From an uncultured bacterium (GTDB lineage: Bacteria; Patescibacteriota; Patescibacteriia; Patescibacteriales; SZUA-104), in NCBI GenBank assembly GCA_913009695.1, contig CAJVWV010000011.1, forward strand, positions 1-24,000: a stretch of 24,000 nucleotides of DNA, read 5' to 3'. This document shows, in pieces, positions 4,201 to 23,099 of this stretch (position 1 is its first letter; every line of letters starts with the position of its first letter). The notes beneath the pieces were generated by a model. The model was not told where the DNA came from. It ran no database searches and was given only the letters and a program-made list of their open reading frames with translations. The translations under genes and the position numbers were made by a program.

Positions 4201-5161
4201 CCAAATCTGGGAAGAAACAAGCTACCGGCTTGAACTACTTCAAACAAACCCTGAATGTGCTAAAGCAGAAAAGAAAAACATTTACGACAGACCTGAGCCA
4301 CACTACCACATACCGTTTAATCTTGTACTTACTGAAAAGAGTATTCTGACAGCTAAAAACAAACCAAAAGTGGCGATCATACGCGAAGAAGGCAGTAACA
4401 GTGATCGCGAGATGACTTCGGCATTTTTCCAAGCAGGGTTTGATACATGGGACGTTACCATGACTGATCTTATTGAGGGCAGAGTGACCTTAAAAGGTTT
4501 TCGCGGAATCGCTTTTGTCGGCGGATTCAGCTATGCGGACGTTCTTGACGCCGCGAAAGGCTGGGCCGGAGTCATAAAGTTCAACGAAAAAGCACGTAAA
4601 GAGTTGCAGGATTTCAAAGACAGAAAAGATACGTTCAGTCTCGGAGTCTGCAACGGCTGCCAGCTCATGACATTACTCGGTTGGATTCCATGGCAGGGCA
4701 TACCCGATACTAAACAGCCAAGGTTTATTCAGAACACTTCCGGAAAATTTGAATCCCGCTGGTCAACAGTAACGATTCTCGACGATAGCCCGTCAATTAT
4801 GCTTAAAGGTATGGGCGACCTGACTTTCGGAATTCCCGTAGCTCATGGCGAAGGAAGATTCTTTTTGCCAGACCACTCAATACTTGACGACGGCAGAATG
4901 GGCAAACTCATGCCGGTACGCTACGTTGATGACACCAACGACATTACTCAGGAATACCCATTTAATCCAAATGGGTCGCGGATGGGCGTAGCCGGAATAT
5001 GTTCAGAAGATGGTCGTCATTTAGCTATGATGCCGCATCCGGAAAGAGCATTTCTCCCATGGCAGTGTCATTGGATACCCGAAGATATGAAAAAAGATCT
5101 TGTGGTGTCTCCATGGATTAAGATGTTCCAAAACGCACGTGAATGGTGCGAAAAAAACTAA
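1205..5161 (+). CDS. purL: Phosphoribosylformylglycinamidine (FGAM) synthase, large single-chain type
   Basis: 1318 aa. It has FGAM-synthase/AIR-synthase-like repeats (GAQTGTGGRIRD, DQGAGGPCN) and a C-terminal class I glutaminase domain (GVCNGCQLM nucleophile elbow, MMPHPER). GTG 1205 overlaps the purN stop (GTGA). In-frame TTG 1214 is 9 nt after AGGAGG (1199-1204) and may be the real start. Confidence 0.95.
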   Translation: MNKLKKIIHFFRTPALTENQIKQIMILQPRSSPDIKIVKTEYCFNVEITEELNDEELTRLGWLLSETFEPDKFSSDSFLLPELFADKYQQTFEVGPRLNFTTAWSTNAVEVCRNCRVNKITRIERSRRFLVETPGKLSDTEKEAFLTVIHDRMTECEYHEPLQTFETNKKPEPVREIQIIEKGQQALVDLNDKLGLGLDDWDINYYYGLFTKDIGRNPTDVECFDLSQSNSEHSRHWFFQGKLIIDGKETPHTLMEIISKPRRDNPGNSIIAFRDNSSSIRGYEIETILPEKPGQPSRFVVARLRYDIIFTAETHNFPSGVAPFPGAQTGTGGRIRDIQATGRGGLVVAGTAAYCVGNLQIPGYELPWEDNSFPYPSNLASPLDIEIQASNGASDYGNKFGEPVVQGYTRSFGMRIPNGERYEWLKPIMFTAGVGQMNSDHAKKEKPEKGMVVMQVGGPAYRIGVGGGAASSMIQGENVAKLDFNAVQRGDAEMEQKMNRVFRTCIEMGDNNPIASAHDQGAGGPCNVITELVEPAGGRIEIRNIQIGDHTLSVLEIWGAEFQERNGLLIHANRVDEFVAICEREKVGCENLGIITGDGHIVVHDSNDDSTPVNLDLNQILAEMPQKTFKLDRIPMKLEPLELPDDLTVMDALEKVLRLLSVGSKRFLTNKADRSVTGLVAQQQCAGPLQLTVSDVAVVAQSHFPNDDGKHTGSAISIGERPILTLLDPAKMARMANGEMLTNLVWALISSFEDIKCSGNWMWAGKLPGEGAKLYDAAVALSDILTILGIAIDGGKDSMSMATKVDGEDEPVKSPGALVMSAYATCPDITKVITPDIKRQGKSSLIFIDLAKGKNRLGGSALAQVHSQIGDESPDVDDPDYLKHVFNAIQTMISENMILSGHDRSDGGLITTLLEMTFAGNCGIDIDFHSECRDPLKVLFSEELGLVVEIADEHLEDVYQFLQDNFIEAWEIGRTTKEKTISIKLNGKNVLNEDMRKLRQIWEETSYRLELLQTNPECAKAEKKNIYDRPEPHYHIPFNLVLTEKSILTAKNKPKVAIIREEGSNSDREMTSAFFQAGFDTWDVTMTDLIEGRVTLKGFRGIAFVGGFSYADVLDAAKGWAGVIKFNEKARKELQDFKDRKDTFSLGVCNGCQLMTLLGWIPWQGIPDTKQPRFIQNTSGKFESRWSTVTILDDSPSIMLKGMGDLTFGIPVAHGEGRFFLPDHSILDDGRMGKLMPVRYVDDTNDITQEYPFNPNGSRMGVAGICSEDGRHLAMMPHPERAFLPWQCHWIPEDMKKDLVVSPWIKMFQNAREWCEKN

Positions 5162-5221: not shown

Positions 5222-5258
5222 ACCTCACCCCCTCCCTCTTCTTGGCAAGGAGAGGGGG
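5222..5258. repeat. GC-rich palindromic element, family B (ACCTCACCCC..CCCTCT..GGAGAGGG)
   Basis: Imperfect hairpin CCCCCTCCCTCTT/AAGGAGAGGGGG. It is about 75-80% identical by hand alignment to the reverse complement of 17435-17468, which lies inside a CDS. Confidence 0.7.
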
Positions 5259-5265
5259 CATTAGA

Positions 5266-6480: not shown

Positions 6481-6516
6481 GCCTAAAAAATGGTAAAAGT
6501 ATTATATAATAATAAG

Positions 6517-6545
6517 TCCCCCTAACCCCCTTTATTAAAGGGGGA
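6517..6545. repeat. GC-rich palindromic element, family A (TCCCCCTAACCCCCTTTATTAAAGGGGGA)
   Basis: Hairpin CCCCCTTT/AAAGGGGG. It is about 85% identical to the reverse complement of 22691-22727 inside murD. Its 3' arm GGGGGA lies 7 nt upstream of the methyltransferase ATG. Confidence 0.7.
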
Positions 6546-6552
6546 AGAAAGT

Positions 6553-7242
6553 ATGAACAAAGATACTCAAAAAGAATTATTGAATATTGTTAAACGCAAT
6601 TATGATGAAATTGCGGAGGAATTTAGTGAAACAAGAAAAAAATATTTATGGCCGGAATTAATTAAATTAAGTGAAGGAATTAAGGATGGAGGCAGTATTC
6701 TTGACGTTGGTTGTGGTAACGGCCGACTGCTTAGAGCTTTTAAGTATAAGGATATTAATTATATCGGAGTGGACAACAGCGAAAAATTAATTAAAATAGC
6801 GCAAAATGATTTTAAAGAAACCGGATATAATTTTTTAGTCGGTGATATTTTAGAACTTGGAAAAATATCGCAAACAAACTTTGACTGCGTTTATTCTATA
6901 GCCGTACTGCAACACATCCCCGGACACGATTTACAAATCGCCGCACTGAAACAGCTAAAAAATAAAGTTAGCGAAGAAGGAAAAATTGTTTTAACTGTTT
7001 GGAATTTATGGAGCCAAAAAAAATTCAGAAAGTTAATTTTTAAATTCTTTTTATTAAAACTGATTAAAAAAAACAAAATGGATTTTGGCGATATTGTATT
7101 TGAAGGTTTTAATCAAAAGTCTAAAAGATATTATCACGGCTTTAGAAAAAGAGAGTTAAAAAAAATAATAAAAAAAGCGGGCTTAAAAATTAAAAAAATC
7201 TATAAAGACAAATATAACTATTACGCTATTTTAAAGAGATAA
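6553..7242 (+). CDS. Class I SAM-dependent methyltransferase
   Basis: Motif I ILDVGCGNGR, then VDNSEKLI and acidic-loop/post-I motifs. Lys-rich C-terminus. Confidence 0.8.
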   Translation: MNKDTQKELLNIVKRNYDEIAEEFSETRKKYLWPELIKLSEGIKDGGSILDVGCGNGRLLRAFKYKDINYIGVDNSEKLIKIAQNDFKETGYNFLVGDILELGKISQTNFDCVYSIAVLQHIPGHDLQIAALKQLKNKVSEEGKIVLTVWNLWSQKKFRKLIFKFFLLKLIKKNKMDFGDIVFEGFNQKSKRYYHGFRKRELKKIIKKAGLKIKKIYKDKYNYYAILKR

Positions 7243-10805: not shown

Positions 10806-10817
10806 CCCCGCTCCTTT

Positions 10818-10900
10818 GTCATCCTGAACTTGATTCAGAATCCAGGAGTAAACAATCCGTACGGCTCTCCACTGGATTCCGGCTCTGCGGCCGGAATGAC
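10818..10900. repeat. 83-nt double-hairpin palindromic element (GTCAT...ATGAC type), MITE/REP-like
   Basis: The left arm is GTCATCCTGAACTTGATTCAGAATCCAG. The reverse complement of the right arm is GTCATTCCGGCCGCAGAGCCGGAATCCAG. The flanks are shared, and the inner stems differ but both still pair (CTGAA/TTCAG versus TTCCGGC/GCCGGAA). Confidence 0.75.
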
Positions 10901-10943
10901 AAAAAAAATAAAAAAAACGCCACAATCGTTATAAAATTGCGGC
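10901..10943 (-). terminator. Rho-independent terminator of the clpP operon
   Basis: Minus-strand RNA forms GCCGCAAU-(9 nt)-AUUGUGGC, followed by GUUUUUUUUAUUUUUUUU. Confidence 0.7.
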
Positions 10944-17030: not shown

Positions 17031-17744
17031 TTACTTAACGGGTTTATAAAAAGTATTGCTTTTTGACCCGAATTTCATCAATTTTTTATCTTTTACAAGA
17101 GTGTTTAAATAGTTTACCGCTTGCCTGTGCTTTACCCCCGTCAGCCGTTCAACATCATCGTTCGTAACTTTCTGCGTCTTATTGGCATACTCCATAACCT
17201 TTTCAAGATTCTCTTCTACGTGTTCATGCCTGACAGTATTCGCCCGACCCCTAAGTTCTTTAAGTTTGTCCAAAAAACTCATAATGGGTCGAGCGATTGA
17301 ATTAATTTCTGGGGCGCTGACAATAGTTTGCCCCGTAGGCTTGCTTGCCCCGTCATTTGCGGGGTCCGCCACAGCTTTAGCGTCGGAGGAAGTTTTATCT
17401 TCCTTCGAGGTAGACGCTGGAGCATGCTCAGACTCCCTCTCCTGACTAAGAGAGGGTTGGGGTGAGGTTTTGGGGAGAGACGTTGCCTCGGATTCAGTTT
17501 TAATTTTTTCAACAGGTTTATCCGCCACAGCGTTAGCGTCAGCGGAAGGAACTTCAACTACTTCCGCAACTTCAAGAGACTCCACAACTTCTTCTTTTTC
17601 TTCTTCCATCACCGGTTCAGGCTTTTCTTTTATTTCTACAACGGGTTCCACGGGAGTTGGAGTAGGTGTAGATTGTGGAGCCTGCCCCGCAGAGGCATCA
17701 GCCTTCTTCGGGGTAGACGATAAAATTTTTGTATCTTCAGCCAT
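17031..17744 (-). CDS. Hypothetical protein: low-complexity acidic/Pro-rich N-terminal region plus a C-terminal winged-helix DNA-binding-like domain
   Basis: The C-terminal roughly 80 aa (KVMEYANKTQKVTNDDVERLTGVKHRQAVNYLNTLVKDKKL) look like a wHTH domain. The N-terminal roughly 150 aa are GC-rich and repeat-derived, and other frames are open across them too. An internal ATG at 17282 is a possible alternative start. Confidence 0.6.
   Translation of the reverse strand: MAEDTKILSSTPKKADASAGQAPQSTPTPTPVEPVVEIKEKPEPVMEEEKEEVVESLEVAEVVEVPSADANAVADKPVEKIKTESEATSLPKTSPQPSLSQERESEHAPASTSKEDKTSSDAKAVADPANDGASKPTGQTIVSAPEINSIARPIMSFLDKLKELRGRANTVRHEHVEENLEKVMEYANKTQKVTNDDVERLTGVKHRQAVNYLNTLVKDKKLMKFGSKSNTFYKPVK
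17365..17392. repeat. Direct repeat copy 1 inside the wHTH-protein ORF
   Basis: TCCGCCACAGCTTTAGCGTCGGAGGAAGT matches 17521-17550 at 25/29. The offset is 156 nt (52 codons). It encodes ..SDAKAVAD.. Confidence 0.65.
17435..17468. repeat. Family B palindromic element, in frame inside the wHTH-protein ORF
   Basis: The reverse complement ACCTCACCCCAACCCTCTCTTAGTCAGGAGAGGG matches intergenic 5222-5258. It is translated as TSPQPSLSQERE. Confidence 0.65.
17521..17550. repeat. Direct repeat copy 2 inside the wHTH-protein ORF
   Basis: TCCGCCACAGCGTTAGCGTCAGCGGAAGG. It encodes PSADANAVAD. Confidence 0.65.
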
Positions 17745-17828: not shown

Positions 17829-17942
17829 CGACGGCTCCATGCTGTGCATGGAGTCATAGTGCAAGTCGCGGATAATAAATAAAACTTTTTTATTTCTAAC
17901 CAACGCTTGCAACTTGGCTCCACGCAAAGCATGGAGCCGTCG
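17829..17942. repeat. 114-nt MITE-like element with hairpin-forming terminal inverted repeats
   Basis: CGACGGCTCCATGCTGTGCATGGAGTCA matches the reverse complement of the right end, CGACGGCTCCATGCTTTGCGTGGAGCCA, at 25/28. Each arm contains the palindrome CTCCATGC/GCATGGAG. The centre is AT-rich. Confidence 0.8.
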
Positions 17943-17963: not shown

Positions 17964-18830
17964 ATGATTAACTTTTTACATACATTCAATCCAGACCCAA
18001 TTCTAATATCCCTCGGTCCCATAAATATCTACTGGTACGGTTTTTTTATTTTACTGGGGAGTATTTCGGCGCTTTTAATAACTTTAAAATTGGCGTCTTA
18101 TTATAATATAAAAAAAGACACAATTATTAATCTGGCTTTCTATTTAATTATCGGCGGAATTATCGGCGCGAGAATTTATCATGTTTTTTTGGAGTTTCCA
18201 TATTACCTAAGCCATCCGCTTAATATTTTTAAAATCTGGCAGGGCGGACTGGCAATCCACGGCGGAATAATCGCCGGAGTTATAATACTTTTCTTTTTTG
18301 CCAAATCAATATCAAAGAGATCCAATCTCCAAAAGGGAGATTGGATCTCTGCTCGAAAAAACTTTTGGTTGCTATCCGCCATTCTTGTTCCCGGCCTTGC
18401 CTTGGCGCAGGCAATAGGCCGATGGGGCAATTATTTTAATCAGGAACTGTTTGGACTTCCTACCGATAAAGCATGGGGAATTCCAATTAATTTTTTAAAT
18501 AGGCCGGCTGAATTTTTAAATTTTCAATATTTTCACCCTACTTTTATCTATGAATCAATGGGAAACTTTTTAATATTTTTAATTTTAATATTAATCAATG
18601 TTTGGATAATAAAAAACCATAAAAATCCTAACAGCTATAAGCTAACAGCTATAAGCTATTTAATCCTATATTCCATTCTCCGTTTTTCCCTTGAATTCAT
18701 CCGCATAGATACTACTCCAGAACTTTTAGGTCTTAGATTTCCGCAAATCGTCAGTCTGCTAATCATATTTTTAACGCCTATAATAATATTGCTATTGCCA
18801 AAAAATAAAAAAAATGTTAGCATCAAATAA
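17964..18830 (+). CDS. lgt: Prolipoprotein diacylglyceryl transferase
   Basis: GPINIYWYGFF, GARIYHV, WQGGLAIHGG and GRWGNYFNQELFG motifs. Multi-pass membrane protein. Confidence 0.92.
   Translation: MINFLHTFNPDPILISLGPINIYWYGFFILLGSISALLITLKLASYYNIKKDTIINLAFYLIIGGIIGARIYHVFLEFPYYLSHPLNIFKIWQGGLAIHGGIIAGVIILFFFAKSISKRSNLQKGDWISARKNFWLLSAILVPGLALAQAIGRWGNYFNQELFGLPTDKAWGIPINFLNRPAEFLNFQYFHPTFIYESMGNFLIFLILILINVWIIKNHKNPNSYKLTAISYLILYSILRFSLEFIRIDTTPELLGLRFPQIVSLLIIFLTPIIILLLPKNKKNVSIK
18316..18350. repeat. Perfect 15-bp stem hairpin embedded in frame in lgt
   Basis: AGAGATCCAATCTCC (18316-18330), loop AAAAG, GGAGATTGGATCTCT (18336-18350). It encodes KRSNLQKGDWIS. Confidence 0.8.
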
Positions 18831-20416: not shown

Positions 20417-21685
20417 TTATTTTTTTCCTCCTGCCAGACGCCTTAAGCCATCAGGCGATTGGCGGGCAGACTTTTTATTAAGCACCGCAACCTCTTCTTC
20501 ACATAAATTATCAACTAGTTTATAGGCGGGATAAAGACCGGTAAATAACATAACGGAAAGTAAAATAAAAATATACTTTAATGGGAAAAATAAAAGAAGA
20601 ATCGCGGAAGCTATTGAAGCCGTTAAAAAACCAACCGGACGTGAAGTTTTAAAAAAACCAATAACGTCAACGTCGCAACCGTCAATTCTTTTATAAAAAT
20701 AAGAATCACGCAAAATCTCAATTAATGACGCGCCAATCCTTGTAATAAAAAGAACAACAGCCCAAACAACAAGACTCGTTGTATCAACAAAAAATATACT
20801 TAATGACGATATACTTATAATAAATATACCAAAAATTATGAGCTCTTTTTCTCCCGTCTTTTTATCAGCCAGCATGCCAACAGGATATTCAAAAAGTATA
20901 AAGGGAAGAAGCATAAAAATAAAAATTATTCCAATCTGACTCCACTCTAGCCCAAGATTTCTTAAATATATCGGAATATATACTATTGCGATAAAATAAA
21001 AAAACTCAAGCAGAAATGAAACATAATAAATTTTCAATATATTTTTTCTTTTCAATATTTTTTTTAATAATACGTTTATTGTCACAACAGGCTTGAATCT
21101 ATGATTAACTCTCCTTAAGTGTTTAAAGGCTATAATAAAGATTATCATTGATAATATAAACTGTAAAAAAAATACTCCTTGAAAATTAAATTTATCTATT
21201 ATTCTTGTTGCTATAAATGGGCCAATCACAAAACCAATATTCATAAGCGTAAGATTGGCGCCCCTGATTCTGCCTGACATCTTGTCTACGGAATAAGATT
21301 CTAAAATTATATCTTTGCCTACAAAACATAAATTATAAAAAATAATATTGATTATAATGACAAAAACTCCTACTTTTGAAATCGGAAGTAAAAATATTAA
21401 TAAAGATGAAATAGCCATCAAAAATGTTGAGACCAAATACGTATTAGACTTCCCAAATCTTTTTATTATTTTGTGAAAATTAAATAAAATAATCAAAACA
21501 AAAATATAAGCGATTGAATAAAAAATACTTATATTATCCGTTCCTCTTACTTCTTTAAAATAAGAAGAAATAATATAAGCGACAATTGCCGAGGCAAAGC
21601 CCAAAATAAAAGAAATAAGGTTTATTGTCCTTACTTTTTTTCTATTTAGTCTTTCATCGTGTTTTAATTTATTTACTTTTGGCAT
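20417..21685 (-). CDS. MFS-type transporter
   Basis: 422 aa with about 12 hydrophobic segments in a 6+6 arrangement around a basic central loop (HLRRVNHRFK). Confidence 0.82.
   Translation of the reverse strand: MPKVNKLKHDERLNRKKVRTINLISFILGFASAIVAYIISSYFKEVRGTDNISIFYSIAYIFVLIILFNFHKIIKRFGKSNTYLVSTFLMAISSLLIFLLPISKVGVFVIIINIIFYNLCFVGKDIILESYSVDKMSGRIRGANLTLMNIGFVIGPFIATRIIDKFNFQGVFFLQFILSMIIFIIAFKHLRRVNHRFKPVVTINVLLKKILKRKNILKIYYVSFLLEFFYFIAIVYIPIYLRNLGLEWSQIGIIFIFMLLPFILFEYPVGMLADKKTGEKELIIFGIFIISISSLSIFFVDTTSLVVWAVVLFITRIGASLIEILRDSYFYKRIDGCDVDVIGFFKTSRPVGFLTASIASAILLLFFPLKYIFILLSVMLFTGLYPAYKLVDNLCEEEVAVLNKKSARQSPDGLRRLAGGKK
20431..20469. repeat. GC-rich imperfect palindrome forming the MFS C-terminal tail
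   Basis: CTGCCAGACGCC..GGCGATTGGCGGGCAG. It encodes SARQSPDGLRRLAGG. The adjacent GGAGG serves as the SD for holA. Confidence 0.45.
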
Positions 21686-21686
21686 T

Positions 21687-23099
21687 TTATTTTAATTTAT
21701 TTATTTCTTTTTTAAACATACATCCTCTTTCTTTATAATTCTTAAACATTCCAAAACTTGCGCAGGCGGGTGAAAGTAAAACTATGTCGCCGGAAATGGC
21801 TTCTCTTTTCGCGATTCTAACCGCTTCCTTCATATTGTACACCAGTTTTATATTTTTTCCAAAAAACCCCGCTTTTTTTATTTCTTTTTTAAGCCTCGGT
21901 GTCGCTTTTCCGTTTAATAATATAACAAACACGGCTTTCTTTTTTATTACTTTAGCTAATTTTTTAAAATCAGATTTCTTTTCCGCTCCGCCCGCTATTA
22001 AAATTATCGGCGCGTTAAAAGAATTTAACGCAATCATAGTAGATTCCGGCGTTGTCGCGAAAGTATCATTGTAATATTTAACGCCTTGAATTGTTTTTAT
22101 AGGTTCTAATCTATGTTCTAATCCTTTAAAATTTTTAACTGCTTTTTCTATTGCGCTTTTTTTAACTCCTACTATTTTCGCTACTTCAACCGCCGCCGCG
22201 ATATTCTCTTTATTATGTTCACCGACTAATTTTGACGGCAATTTAGATTTATTAAATAAAATAACTTTACTCTTTGAATTAATTTTTTTGTTCACCACGG
22301 CATAATCACCACGCTTCTGATATTTCACAATATTCATCTTTGCGTTTTTGTATTCCTTCAATGACCGATGGTAATTCGGGTTATTAGGATCAGCCGCGAA
22401 TAAATGCTCTTTATAGAAATTTGTTATGACCGCGATTTTAGGGCTCGTTTCCATGTCTTCCAGTTGAAAACTGGATAACTCTAAAACAACCCAATCATTC
22501 TTTTTAATCTTACTAATAAATTCAAAAGGCGCTACCCCGATATTTCCACCAAGCCATACGCGCTTACCAGATTTTTTTATAATATTATAGATTAAACTTG
22601 CGGTCGTTCCTTTTCCTTTTGTTCCTGTGACGCCAATAATATTTTTAGAGGGACTAAGGTCAAAAAATAATTTCATTGGACTGGAAATAATAGCCCCCCC
22701 TTTAGTAAAGGGGGCTGAGGGGGATTTAATTTTACGAAGTGCAGAAGAGAACAATGGATATCCGGGCGACCTAAAAATAATATCATATTTCTCTAAATTT
22801 TTATCATAATTTTTTCCCAGCTTCCATTCAATTATTTTGTCATTGCGAGGAGGAACGAAGCGACGACGTGGCAATCCCGTTTGTTGCAACACCAGAGATT
22901 GCTTCGCTGCGCTCGCAATGACAGAGTATCTCTCCCCTAATTCCTTTTTGCTTCTTTTGTCGCAAATTGTAATTTCACAATCTACCTTTTTAGATAGCAA
23001 AAACTTAACTAAGGCACAATTCTCAATACCCAAACCTAAAATACAAATTTTTTTATTTTGTAAATCCTTTAAACTTGGCATAAATTCTAAAATTACCAT
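21687..23099 (-). CDS. murD: UDP-N-acetylmuramoylalanine--D-glutamate ligase
   Basis: N-terminal Rossmann motif ICILGLGIENCALVKFLL, P-loop GVTGTKGKGTT, and Mur ligase central and C-terminal domains. The start overlaps the upstream stop (TAATG). The gene contains two in-frame repeat elements. Confidence 0.92.
   Translation of the reverse strand: MVILEFMPSLKDLQNKKICILGLGIENCALVKFLLSKKVDCEITICDKRSKKELGERYSVIASAAKQSLVLQQTGLPRRRFVPPRNDKIIEWKLGKNYDKNLEKYDIIFRSPGYPLFSSALRKIKSPSAPFTKGGAIISSPMKLFFDLSPSKNIIGVTGTKGKGTTASLIYNIIKKSGKRVWLGGNIGVAPFEFISKIKKNDWVVLELSSFQLEDMETSPKIAVITNFYKEHLFAADPNNPNYHRSLKEYKNAKMNIVKYQKRGDYAVVNKKINSKSKVILFNKSKLPSKLVGEHNKENIAAAVEVAKIVGVKKSAIEKAVKNFKGLEHRLEPIKTIQGVKYYNDTFATTPESTMIALNSFNAPIILIAGGAEKKSDFKKLAKVIKKKAVFVILLNGKATPRLKKEIKKAGFFGKNIKLVYNMKEAVRIAKREAISGDIVLLSPACASFGMFKNYKERGCMFKKEINKLK
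22691..22727. repeat. Family A palindromic element in frame in murD
   Basis: AGCCCCCCCTTTAGTAAAGGGGGCT hairpin. Its reverse complement is about 85% identical to intergenic 6517-6545. It encodes SPSAPFTKGG. Confidence 0.7.
22839..22922. repeat. 84-nt (28-codon) double-hairpin palindromic element in frame in murD
   Basis: 11-nt perfect termini GTCATTGCGAG / CTCGCAATGAC. Both arms are hairpins closed by ATTGC/GCAAT, and the centre contains GTTGCAAC. It is translated as VIASAAKQSLVLQQTGLPRRRFVPPRND. Confidence 0.85.

Follow-up and report, generated by a model that had tools for sequence, protein, structure and literature searches.

A 24,000-nt stretch from an uncultured Patescibacteriota bacterium (contig CAJVWV010000011.1, positions 1–24,000 of the forward strand; hereafter, the window) carries a murD gene with two GC-rich palindromic repeats, elements 1 and 2, lying in frame within its coding sequence. 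Both repeats belong to large dispersed families, and their presence in murD probably reflects the tolerated, translated insertion of selfish elements into permissive loops of the MurD protein. The murD locus has the following features:

21687–23099, minus strand: murD, UDP-N-acetylmuramoyl-L-alanine--D-glutamate ligase, intact, 470 aa, host of elements 1 and 2
22838–22923, minus strand: element 1, a TGTC-tagged palindromic element with an 84-nt core (22839–22922), 86 nt with the T/A closing pair
22839–22849: outer box GTCATTGCGAG, one arm of the 11-bp terminal stem, located by sequence search
22912–22922: outer box CTCGCAATGAC, the other arm of the terminal stem, reverse complement of GTCATTGCGAG
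22868–22876: inner box GTGGCAATC, a variant of GAAGCAATC of the family, assigned from sequence reading and family architecture
22897–22905: inner box GATTGCTTC, partner of GTGGCAATC, assigned in the same way
22694–22727, minus strand: element 2, a 'half' copy of a palindromic family with C-runs and G-runs; its sense strand reads AAATCCCCCTCAGCCCCCTTTACTAAAGGGGGGG

The murD product matches TIGR01087 over its full length with 344 bits (cut-off 212), which places it in that family, contains the Pfam domains Mur_ligase_M (PF08245) and Mur_ligase_C (PF02875) and keeps the P-loop GVTGTKGKGTT (GTKGKGTT); an earlier first-pass annotation of this DNA had likewise described the gene as intact with its P-loop. 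An exact look-up of the sequence in protein records gave no match. The AlphaFold model, built with 30 homologues as input, has a mean predicted local distance difference test score (pLDDT) of 81.3 and aligns to Escherichia coli MurD (5a5f) with template modelling scores of 0.74/0.80, indicative of a normal MurD fold. In this model, pLDDT falls below 50 at residues 74–86 and 126–133, inside inserts 1 and 2, respectively, so that both inserts are predicted to be low-confidence loops on the MurD fold, in agreement with the loop positions proposed in the first-pass annotation. In the N-terminal domain, the insert at site 1 separates the second strand from the third; the extension at site 2 precedes the strand that leads into the ATP-binding domain.

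Element 1 is exactly 28 codons long and in phase, with ends on codon boundaries, and encodes residues 60–87, VIASAAKQSLVLQQTGLPRRRFVPPRND (VIAS...PRND), flanked by ..GERYS and KIIEW. The box GTCATTGCGAG occurs in the window only at 22839–22849 (plus strand) and 22912–22922 (minus strand), with 0.27 matches expected by chance; no further match was found in the window with one mismatch allowed. The palindrome grows by one more pair (T22838/A22923), giving perfect inverted ends of 11–12 nt. GC content of the element is about 50–60%, against 36.5% for the window. As RNA, it folds into a single long imperfect hairpin (−33.4 kcal/mol, z = −3.4), and as DNA it folds at −19.2 kcal/mol (z = −3.3). Thus, the perfect 11-nt terminal inverted repeats and the 84-nt, 28-codon in-phase insert claimed in the first-pass annotation are borne out by sequence and translation, whereas the two internally hairpinned arms that it also described are not convincingly supported: folded separately, the arms reach −2.7 and −1.2 kcal/mol, no better than shuffled sequences.

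Element 2 encodes SPSAPFTKGG (residues 126–135). It is an in-frame insert, as had been suggested, but adds 7 residues (SPSAPFT) rather than 10, because relatives have native K-A-G-V codons where its AAAGGGGG end aligns. Its core, CCCCCTTTAGTAAAGGGGG (22696–22714), has one other match in the window (6526–6544, one mismatch; 0.00 expected by chance), which belongs to an intergenic sibling:

6514–6544, plus strand: element 2 sibling AAGTCCCCCTAACCCCCTTTATTAAAGGGGG, intergenic, ending 8 nt before the ATG of a methyltransferase-like open reading frame (ORF) at 6553

The existence of this copy had been noted before; its identity with element 2 over 6514–6544 is nearer 90%, with one indel, than the 85% given then. 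The G-run of the sibling and the adjoining AAGAAAG (within 6514–6544) could also serve as the ribosome-binding region of the methyltransferase-like gene. A scan for the C-run/G-run plan found the family in at least 120 metagenome stretches with GC contents of 0.3–0.7. Its consensus is AAATC-CCCCCT-nn-CCCCCC-TTT-nnn-AAA-GGGGGG, to which many members add a second G-run and ATTT. The window copies represent a shorter form, and element 2 matches the consensus down to its AAATC lead-in. No published name was found for this family, and Rfam scans of the window, and of the region at E values up to 10, returned no family for element 2.

Relatives of element 1 were collected with the pattern GTCATTGCGAG-N(50-80)-CTCGCAATGAC, using one genome per species, so that the outer boxes of all copies are fixed by the pattern. 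Among the matches listed, the family is present in at least 120 genome stretches from at least seven phyla, including Alphaproteobacteria (Bradyrhizobium and many Sphingomonadales), Gamma- and Deltaproteobacteria, Bacteroidota (Mucilaginibacter, Pedobacter and Flavobacterium), Chloroflexota, Planctomycetota and Cyanobacteria (a Microcoleus); three of the listed matches are from Patescibacteria. Family members are 73–102 nt long and built alike: each half runs from an outer box through a variable stretch, in many copies a mini-hairpin, to an inner box GAAGCAATC(C/T), and a variable centre separates it from its mirror image. Their ends read (C/T)GTCATTGCGAG...CTCGCAATGAC(G/A); position −1 is C in 87 and T in 36 of the 129 listed copies, with position +1 mirroring it, and the family ends therefore read CGTC or TGTC. 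The flanks of these 129 copies show a pyrimidine at −1, a purine at +1 and nothing beyond about 2 nt, that is, no target-site duplication. The three pairs just inside the inner box covary, being Watson–Crick in 90, 93 and 73 of 103 copies, with several pair types, compared with maxima of 67, 60 and 51 over 500 partner shuffles.

The family has no counterpart in Rfam, either in region 22600–23000 searched at E values up to 10 or in 10 loci with canonical copies, and in the window as a whole only tRNAs reach the gathering score. A protein database search with the 61-residue concatenated insert peptide gave no scored match, and searches of literature text for the DNA boxes and typical peptides found nothing relevant. 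Copies are found on plasmids of Novosphingobium, Methylosinus and Methylocystis, where no annotation names the family, and curated phage genomes are nearly devoid of it. Among predicted viral contigs, at least the IMG/VR loci L248–L327 also match the element 1 pattern. The element 1 family thus appears to be very widespread and apparently unnamed, being found in neither Rfam nor the searchable literature, and the expectation of the first-pass annotation that further copies of the murD elements should exist holds for both.

We compared the window MurD with 120 homologues, whose sources are without exception metagenome bins of Patescibacteria type, Candidatus Falkowbacteria among them. The Pfam profile MurD-like_N aligns to residues 16–53 and then stops, TIGR01087 picks up again at residue 89, and solved MurD structures align only outside both insert stretches. 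Between the invariant D47 and W92, the homologues vary from 14 to 54 residues, an empty site 1 in the nearest empty-site relatives (P0004, P0005, P0006 and P0009) corresponding to 21 residues; the P115–S140 stretch, which includes site 2, has 19 residues in most homologues and 26 in the window MurD. Judged against the profiles and the 120 homologues, both segments are insert-only, as had been proposed. Another segment, ADPNNPNYH (residues 236–244, about 22368–22394), is missing from solved MurDs, has pLDDT below 50 and is invariant in 30 homologues. Such invariance is the pattern expected of an insert native to this family, unlike elements 1 and 2, and the alignments mark ADPNNPNYH as a genuine clade-specific feature of Patescibacteria MurD.

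Clade-specific MurD loops therefore do exist, which lends some plausibility to the view that the two segments are native lineage-specific loops resembling repeats by chance or through compositional convergence. We regard this view as very unlikely. The exact 11-nt ends and inner boxes of element 1 are common to at least 120 loci in unrelated phyla, element 2 fits its family consensus including the AAATC lead-in, both segments are variable or absent in close relatives, in contrast to ADPNNPNYH, and their GC content is far above that of the surrounding gene.

The element boundaries are reproduced in independent data. A separate ENA assembly (L001) is 100% identical to the window over the first 500 nt of murD, both elements included, the element-bearing MurD of a relative (P0015) is on record in at least 24 contigs, four other lineages carry an element at the same codon, and the reading frame is preserved. 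The chimeric join that the first-pass annotation had listed as a possible source of error is thus contradicted by these data. Two features of the data could nevertheless be taken as signs of an assembly or sequencing artefact. A complete Illumina TruSeq universal adapter (AATGATACGGCGACCACCGAGATCTACACTCTTTCCCTACACGACGCTCTTCCGATCT) occupies positions 98–153 of the window and follows on poly-T low-complexity sequence; positions 1–153 are not genomic, and the ORF called at 28–501 starts within this junk. Moreover, the MurD encoded by L001 (P0002) is identical to the window MurD at residues 1–210 and 391–470 and diverged in between (11 of 30 residues identical around residue 285), a mosaic that makes strain recombination plausible, although chimeric assembly would give an equal pattern. 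L001 and the window also have their genes in a different order downstream of holA. Given the reproducibility of the sequence around both elements, an artefact at their junctions is scarcely credible, and we conclude that the junctions are real.

In genome and viral scans, 3 of 59 copies of the element 1 family in low-GC loci fell within long spans free of stop codons. Two of them clearly lie in genes: one is in frame in the GMP synthase gene guaA (L046, positions 4466–4543; 684 bits) and the other in uvrA (L053, positions 2835–2921; 1198 bits), both in low-GC metagenome-assembled genomes labelled Gammaproteobacteria. They are read in the same VIA..RND phase as in murD, and profile alignments of both proteins are broken at the insert. 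The third copy (L063) is probably located just upstream of the real start codon of its gene. In addition to the window, three other lineages carry a full element 1 in murD, and the four murD copies (84, 99, 99 and 96 nt) are all stop-free with lengths that are multiples of 3, as are the guaA and uvrA copies, whereas lengths in the family at large show no such bias (46/46/37 for the three remainders modulo 3 among the 129 listed copies). This difference fits selection for an open frame and argues for read-through over removal.

Removal of the element before or during protein synthesis, as an intron-like sequence, an intein or a translational bypass, would find some support in its strong hairpin, which does resemble structures that promote bypass or processing. 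However, self-splicing introns are longer than 84 nt and inteins longer than 28 residues, no intron or ribozyme family was matched in Rfam even at E = 10, and removal would not require the murD, guaA and uvrA copies to be stop-free multiples of 3. Size, Rfam negatives and frame preservation lead us to reject the intron and intein variants, and removal of any kind is highly improbable.

Among known repeats, element 1 comes closest to the CGTC-tagged superfamily of repetitive extragenic palindromes (REPs) described by Di Nocera, De Gregorio and Rocco (2013, BMC Genomics 14:522; PMC3733652). In that definition, the CGTC tag is often TGTC, with CCTC also allowed, and is followed by an 8–9 bp stem whose first pairs are A-T and T-A, a loop of 4–5 nt and a tail with the consensus CCA; the repeats occur in several phyla, mostly as head-to-head dimers, and have no dedicated transposase (PMC3733652). 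Element 1 carries TGTC at both ends (T22838-GTC..., ...GAC-A22923), and it consists of two inverted halves with their tags pointing outwards, that is, head to head. No transposase-like ORF was seen among window ORFs of at least 90 aa, judged by reading the translations rather than by a profile scan. The stem and loop are less typical. Taken as one unit, the element has an 8-bp stem (ATTGCGAG/CTCGCAAT) beginning with A-T and T-A, and a 62-nt loop; taken as halves, it has weakly folding stems of only 5 bp (ATTGC/GCAAT) and loops of about 12 nt with a GCGAAGC-type mini-hairpin in each. As for the tail, the commonest pairs after the inner box GCAAT in the family spell C-C-A (..GCAATCCAG), and the window copy has CTC and CCC. 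Element 1 therefore fits as a putative member or close relative of the CGTC/TGTC-tagged superfamily, but the fit is not complete. As far as its text shows, the ATTGCGAG/GAAGCAAT family and its VIAS..PRND peptide are absent from the intragenic repeat table in PMC3733652, as are the strings VIAS, VIAR, PRND, ARND and LAMT from the supplements, and Patescibacteria, Chloroflexota and Cyanobacteria are outside the five phyla listed there for CGTC repeats.

The window also contains a typical pair of such repeats:

10817–10901: intergenic head-to-head pair of TGTC-tagged REPs, TGTC-ATCCTGAA-loop-ATTCAGAAT-CCA ... TGG-ATTCCGGC-TCTGC-GCCGGAAT-GACA

Located between the RNase Y gene and small ORFs, in a region with no ORF longer than 56 aa, this pair has 8-bp stems, loops of 5–6 nt and CCA tails, and folds as DNA at −17.6 kcal/mol (z = −4.2); the CGTC superfamily is thus resident in the window genome. 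Outside this pair, almost no canonical CGTC units (8-bp stems, 3–8 nt loops) were found in related loci. At site 1 of MurD relatives, canonical CGTC-REP units occur, encoding WIPAYAGMT and GLRVKPAMT.

Rickettsia palindromic elements (RPEs) are in-frame palindromes in housekeeping genes whose read-through peptides are compatible with the protein fold (Ogata et al., 2000, as summarised in PMC10969869 and PMC3733652). The murD elements resemble them in having a small-genome host and an in-frame, fold-compatible insertion in a housekeeping gene. According to PMC3733652, RPE-4 belongs to CGTC-4 and RPE-6 to CGTC-1, and Rickettsia genes that host CGTC repeats include a murB and one encoding a PBP1C. 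The first-pass annotation, which had drawn the parallel with RPEs, thus understated it, since the TGTC/CGTC tag of element 1 is that of the very superfamily to which RPE-4 and RPE-6 belong. On the other hand, it overstated the novelty of the case: in-frame intragenic CGTC REP units and dimers that encode 20–30 residues, often in uvrA/uvrB, polA, dnaE and cell-wall genes, are already catalogued in the 2013 article (PMC3733652). Our UvrA copy agrees with its report that REPs favour repair genes. The differences from RPEs include the peptides themselves (VIPAKAGI, SFPRKRES, DSRFRGND and VIPWLDHGI for RPE-4 and RPE-6, as given in Additional file 3 of PMC3733652, versus VIAS..PRND, a comparison made at the peptide level), the greater length of RPE-1 (about 150 bp), the host phylum, and the recurrent filling of one MurD loop across many lineages.

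Other classes of small repeats are more distant. Coxiella QMITE, ERIC and enterobacterial RU, all of them small and non-autonomous, are bounded by terminal inverted repeats and in some cases lie within genes, in phase with the coding sequence (PMC5896051, PMC2759123, PMC10969869). Element 1 shares the terminal inverted repeats of such miniature inverted-repeat transposable elements; it differs from them in that its family lacks a target-site duplication and in being a near-complete palindrome, as opposed to terminal repeats around unrelated DNA, and no insertion sequence is known as its parent (transposases flanked by GTCATTGCGAG were not searched for). With REPINs it shares the organization of two inverted units and a variable spacer into one hairpin of 70–100 nt, which is the apparent unit of spread. 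Bertels and Rainey are said to have described REPINs in 2011 as REP doublets that form hairpins and are mobilised by RAYT transposases. REPINs have a GTAG head and a RAYT (RAYTs are described in PMC3733652); element 1 has a CGTC/TGTC head, and the window showed no RAYT. A REPIN family is usually confined to one lineage, whereas the ends of element 1 are identical across phyla. A literature search for palindromic, REP or in-frame repeats in the Candidate Phyla Radiation (CPR), with most subscription journals outside its reach, found no description. Three aspects look new here: that the host belongs to the CPR, that a single MurD loop is used recurrently and that the box ends are identical even at synonymous sites across diverged lineages.

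A repeat-derived peptide is present at site 1 in about 45% of the 120 homologues, drawn from at least six families: full VIA..RND, half units RLLR..RND, WIPAxAGMT, GLRVKPAMT, ..TRHASS.. and ..QNFVSL... In the DNA of two relatives, single canonical CGTC units are followed by half of a ATTGCGAG family member, in tandem at site 1 and in one orientation. In some homologues, material of this kind also fills site 2 and at least five other MurD positions. The window has a GC-rich hairpin between purL and purM (5222–5259, ACCTCACCCCCTCCCTCTTCTTGGCAAGGAGAGGGGGC), whose family is represented by an in-frame peptide, PPLLAKERAGVR, at MurD site 2 of P0030 and P0063.

The full element 1 occurs at exactly one codon in four lineages (the window, P0003, P0014 and P0015), which in a neighbour-joining tree without support values are not mutual nearest relatives, each having sisters with empty or differently filled sites; synteny places the window with L005, whose site is empty. 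Across these four lineages, the outer boxes are identical at 129 of 132 pairwise positions, including 42 of 42 third-codon positions, whereas third positions in the flanks, which have diverged by about 30%, are 54% identical. The interiors of the four copies differ by whole modules and in length. Identity at synonymous sites next to diverged flanks excludes an ancient insert drifting neutrally, and needs recent re-insertion, independent insertions at one codon, gene conversion from other copies or a nucleic-acid constraint on the hairpin ends. A possible transfer of the N-terminal segment found no significant support: relative to the rest of the protein, near-site identity is higher for filled alleles (25/38) than for the nearest empty ones (18/37), a difference that is not significant.

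One explanation for the conserved boxes would be that element 1 is kept or restored, either because its hairpin acts in mRNA (as a pause, processing or stability signal in murD) or in DNA (where a factor of the host or of the element would bind or cut it), or because the codon is a target for homing or gene conversion. Apart from the box identity, this explanation would account for the retention of the GC-rich codons GCG, CGC and GAC in a window with 36.5% GC, the sharing of the full element at one codon by lineages that are not nearest neighbours in the tree, the sparseness of the family elsewhere in these loci, the stacking of other repeat families at site 1 in one orientation and the covariation of stem pairs across the family. 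Yet the close relatives P0004, P0005, P0006 and P0009 are free of the insert, which is thus not required for MurD, the interiors vary by whole modules and lengths, and many homologues hold eroded remnants or unrelated families at site 1. The tree, moreover, has no support values, and covariation in a palindrome may stem from how the repeat is made and not from selection. On balance, we find a nucleic-acid role or homing target improbable.

A broader possibility, which we consider unlikely though worth stating, is that the site 1 loop is an actively targeted or maintained landing site for CGTC-type hairpins across Patescibacteria, the ATTGCGAG/GAAGCAAT family being an unnamed element whose 11-nt ends are the same in at least seven phyla. 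It would account for the synonymous-site identity of the boxes across diverged lineages. If it were true, the elements would home to site 1, be refreshed by gene conversion or have a hairpin with a DNA or mRNA role, and the identical ends in at least seven phyla would imply conserved trans-acting machinery or frequent inter-phylum transfer.

The account that we consider probable remains the tolerated, translated insertion of selfish palindromic repeats into permissive MurD loops, i.e. the known behaviour of RPEs and CGTC-REPs in a CPR genome. Dispersed, non-autonomous, GC-rich palindromic repeats would land in permissive surface loops of MurD, and the ribosome would read through both, producing a 28-residue, largely disordered loop and a 7-residue extension. 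The inserts would survive because they are in phase and stop-free and the fold tolerates them. In a CPR genome that is compact, AT-rich and short of intergenic space, the few permissive protein loops might serve as safe havens, which would explain why one MurD loop holds different repeat families in different lineages. We infer that the inserts are translated and nearly neutral and that they were acquired by this mode of insertion. Several observations weigh against this account. The unit geometry of element 1 departs from the published CGTC stem and loop definition, and the synonymous-site identity of the boxes (42/42 versus 54% in the flanks) is not predicted by simple neutral residence. There is no second copy of element 1 in the 24-kb window and the family is sparse in related loci, so that repeated random insertion at one codon is not obviously expected. 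Mobility is deduced from the distribution of the repeats, since neither a target-site duplication nor a transposase was seen.

Several other repeats were noticed in the window. A third GC-rich palindromic repeat (20426–20472, minus strand) is located at the end of the ORF for a major facilitator superfamily transporter (20417–21685) that adjoins murD; it gives the transporter a 17-residue C-terminal tail, SARQSPDGLRRLAGGKK, and the 406-aa orthologue in L005 stops where this tail starts. Just upstream of lgt (17964–18830) lies a repeat of another type, an imperfect palindrome (17829–17942) with 56-nt arms that are 73% complementary, an AT-rich centre and GC-rich ends, CGACGGCTCCATGC...GCATGGAGCCGTCG. 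The ORF at 17031–17744 (minus strand) encodes a 237-aa hypothetical protein with a low-complexity N-terminal half, GC islands at 17311–17550 and repeat-like GC-rich segments (..TSPQPSLSQERESEH.., ..SADANAVADKP.., ..SSDAKAVADPAN..), and may be largely built from such elements.

These observations would extend the read-through palindromes known in essential enzymes of Rickettsia to the CPR, whose genomes are likewise tiny and gene-dense. They also carry a warning for annotation: GC-rich peptides and length variation in CPR proteins (VIAS..PRND, WIPAxAGMT, RLLR..RND, PPLIKGG) would represent repeat-derived loops and not lineage-specific functional motifs or frameshifts. Finally, the recurrence at one MurD loop, together with the nucleotide-level conservation of the ends, offers a tractable case for studying how CGTC-tagged repeats move or persist.

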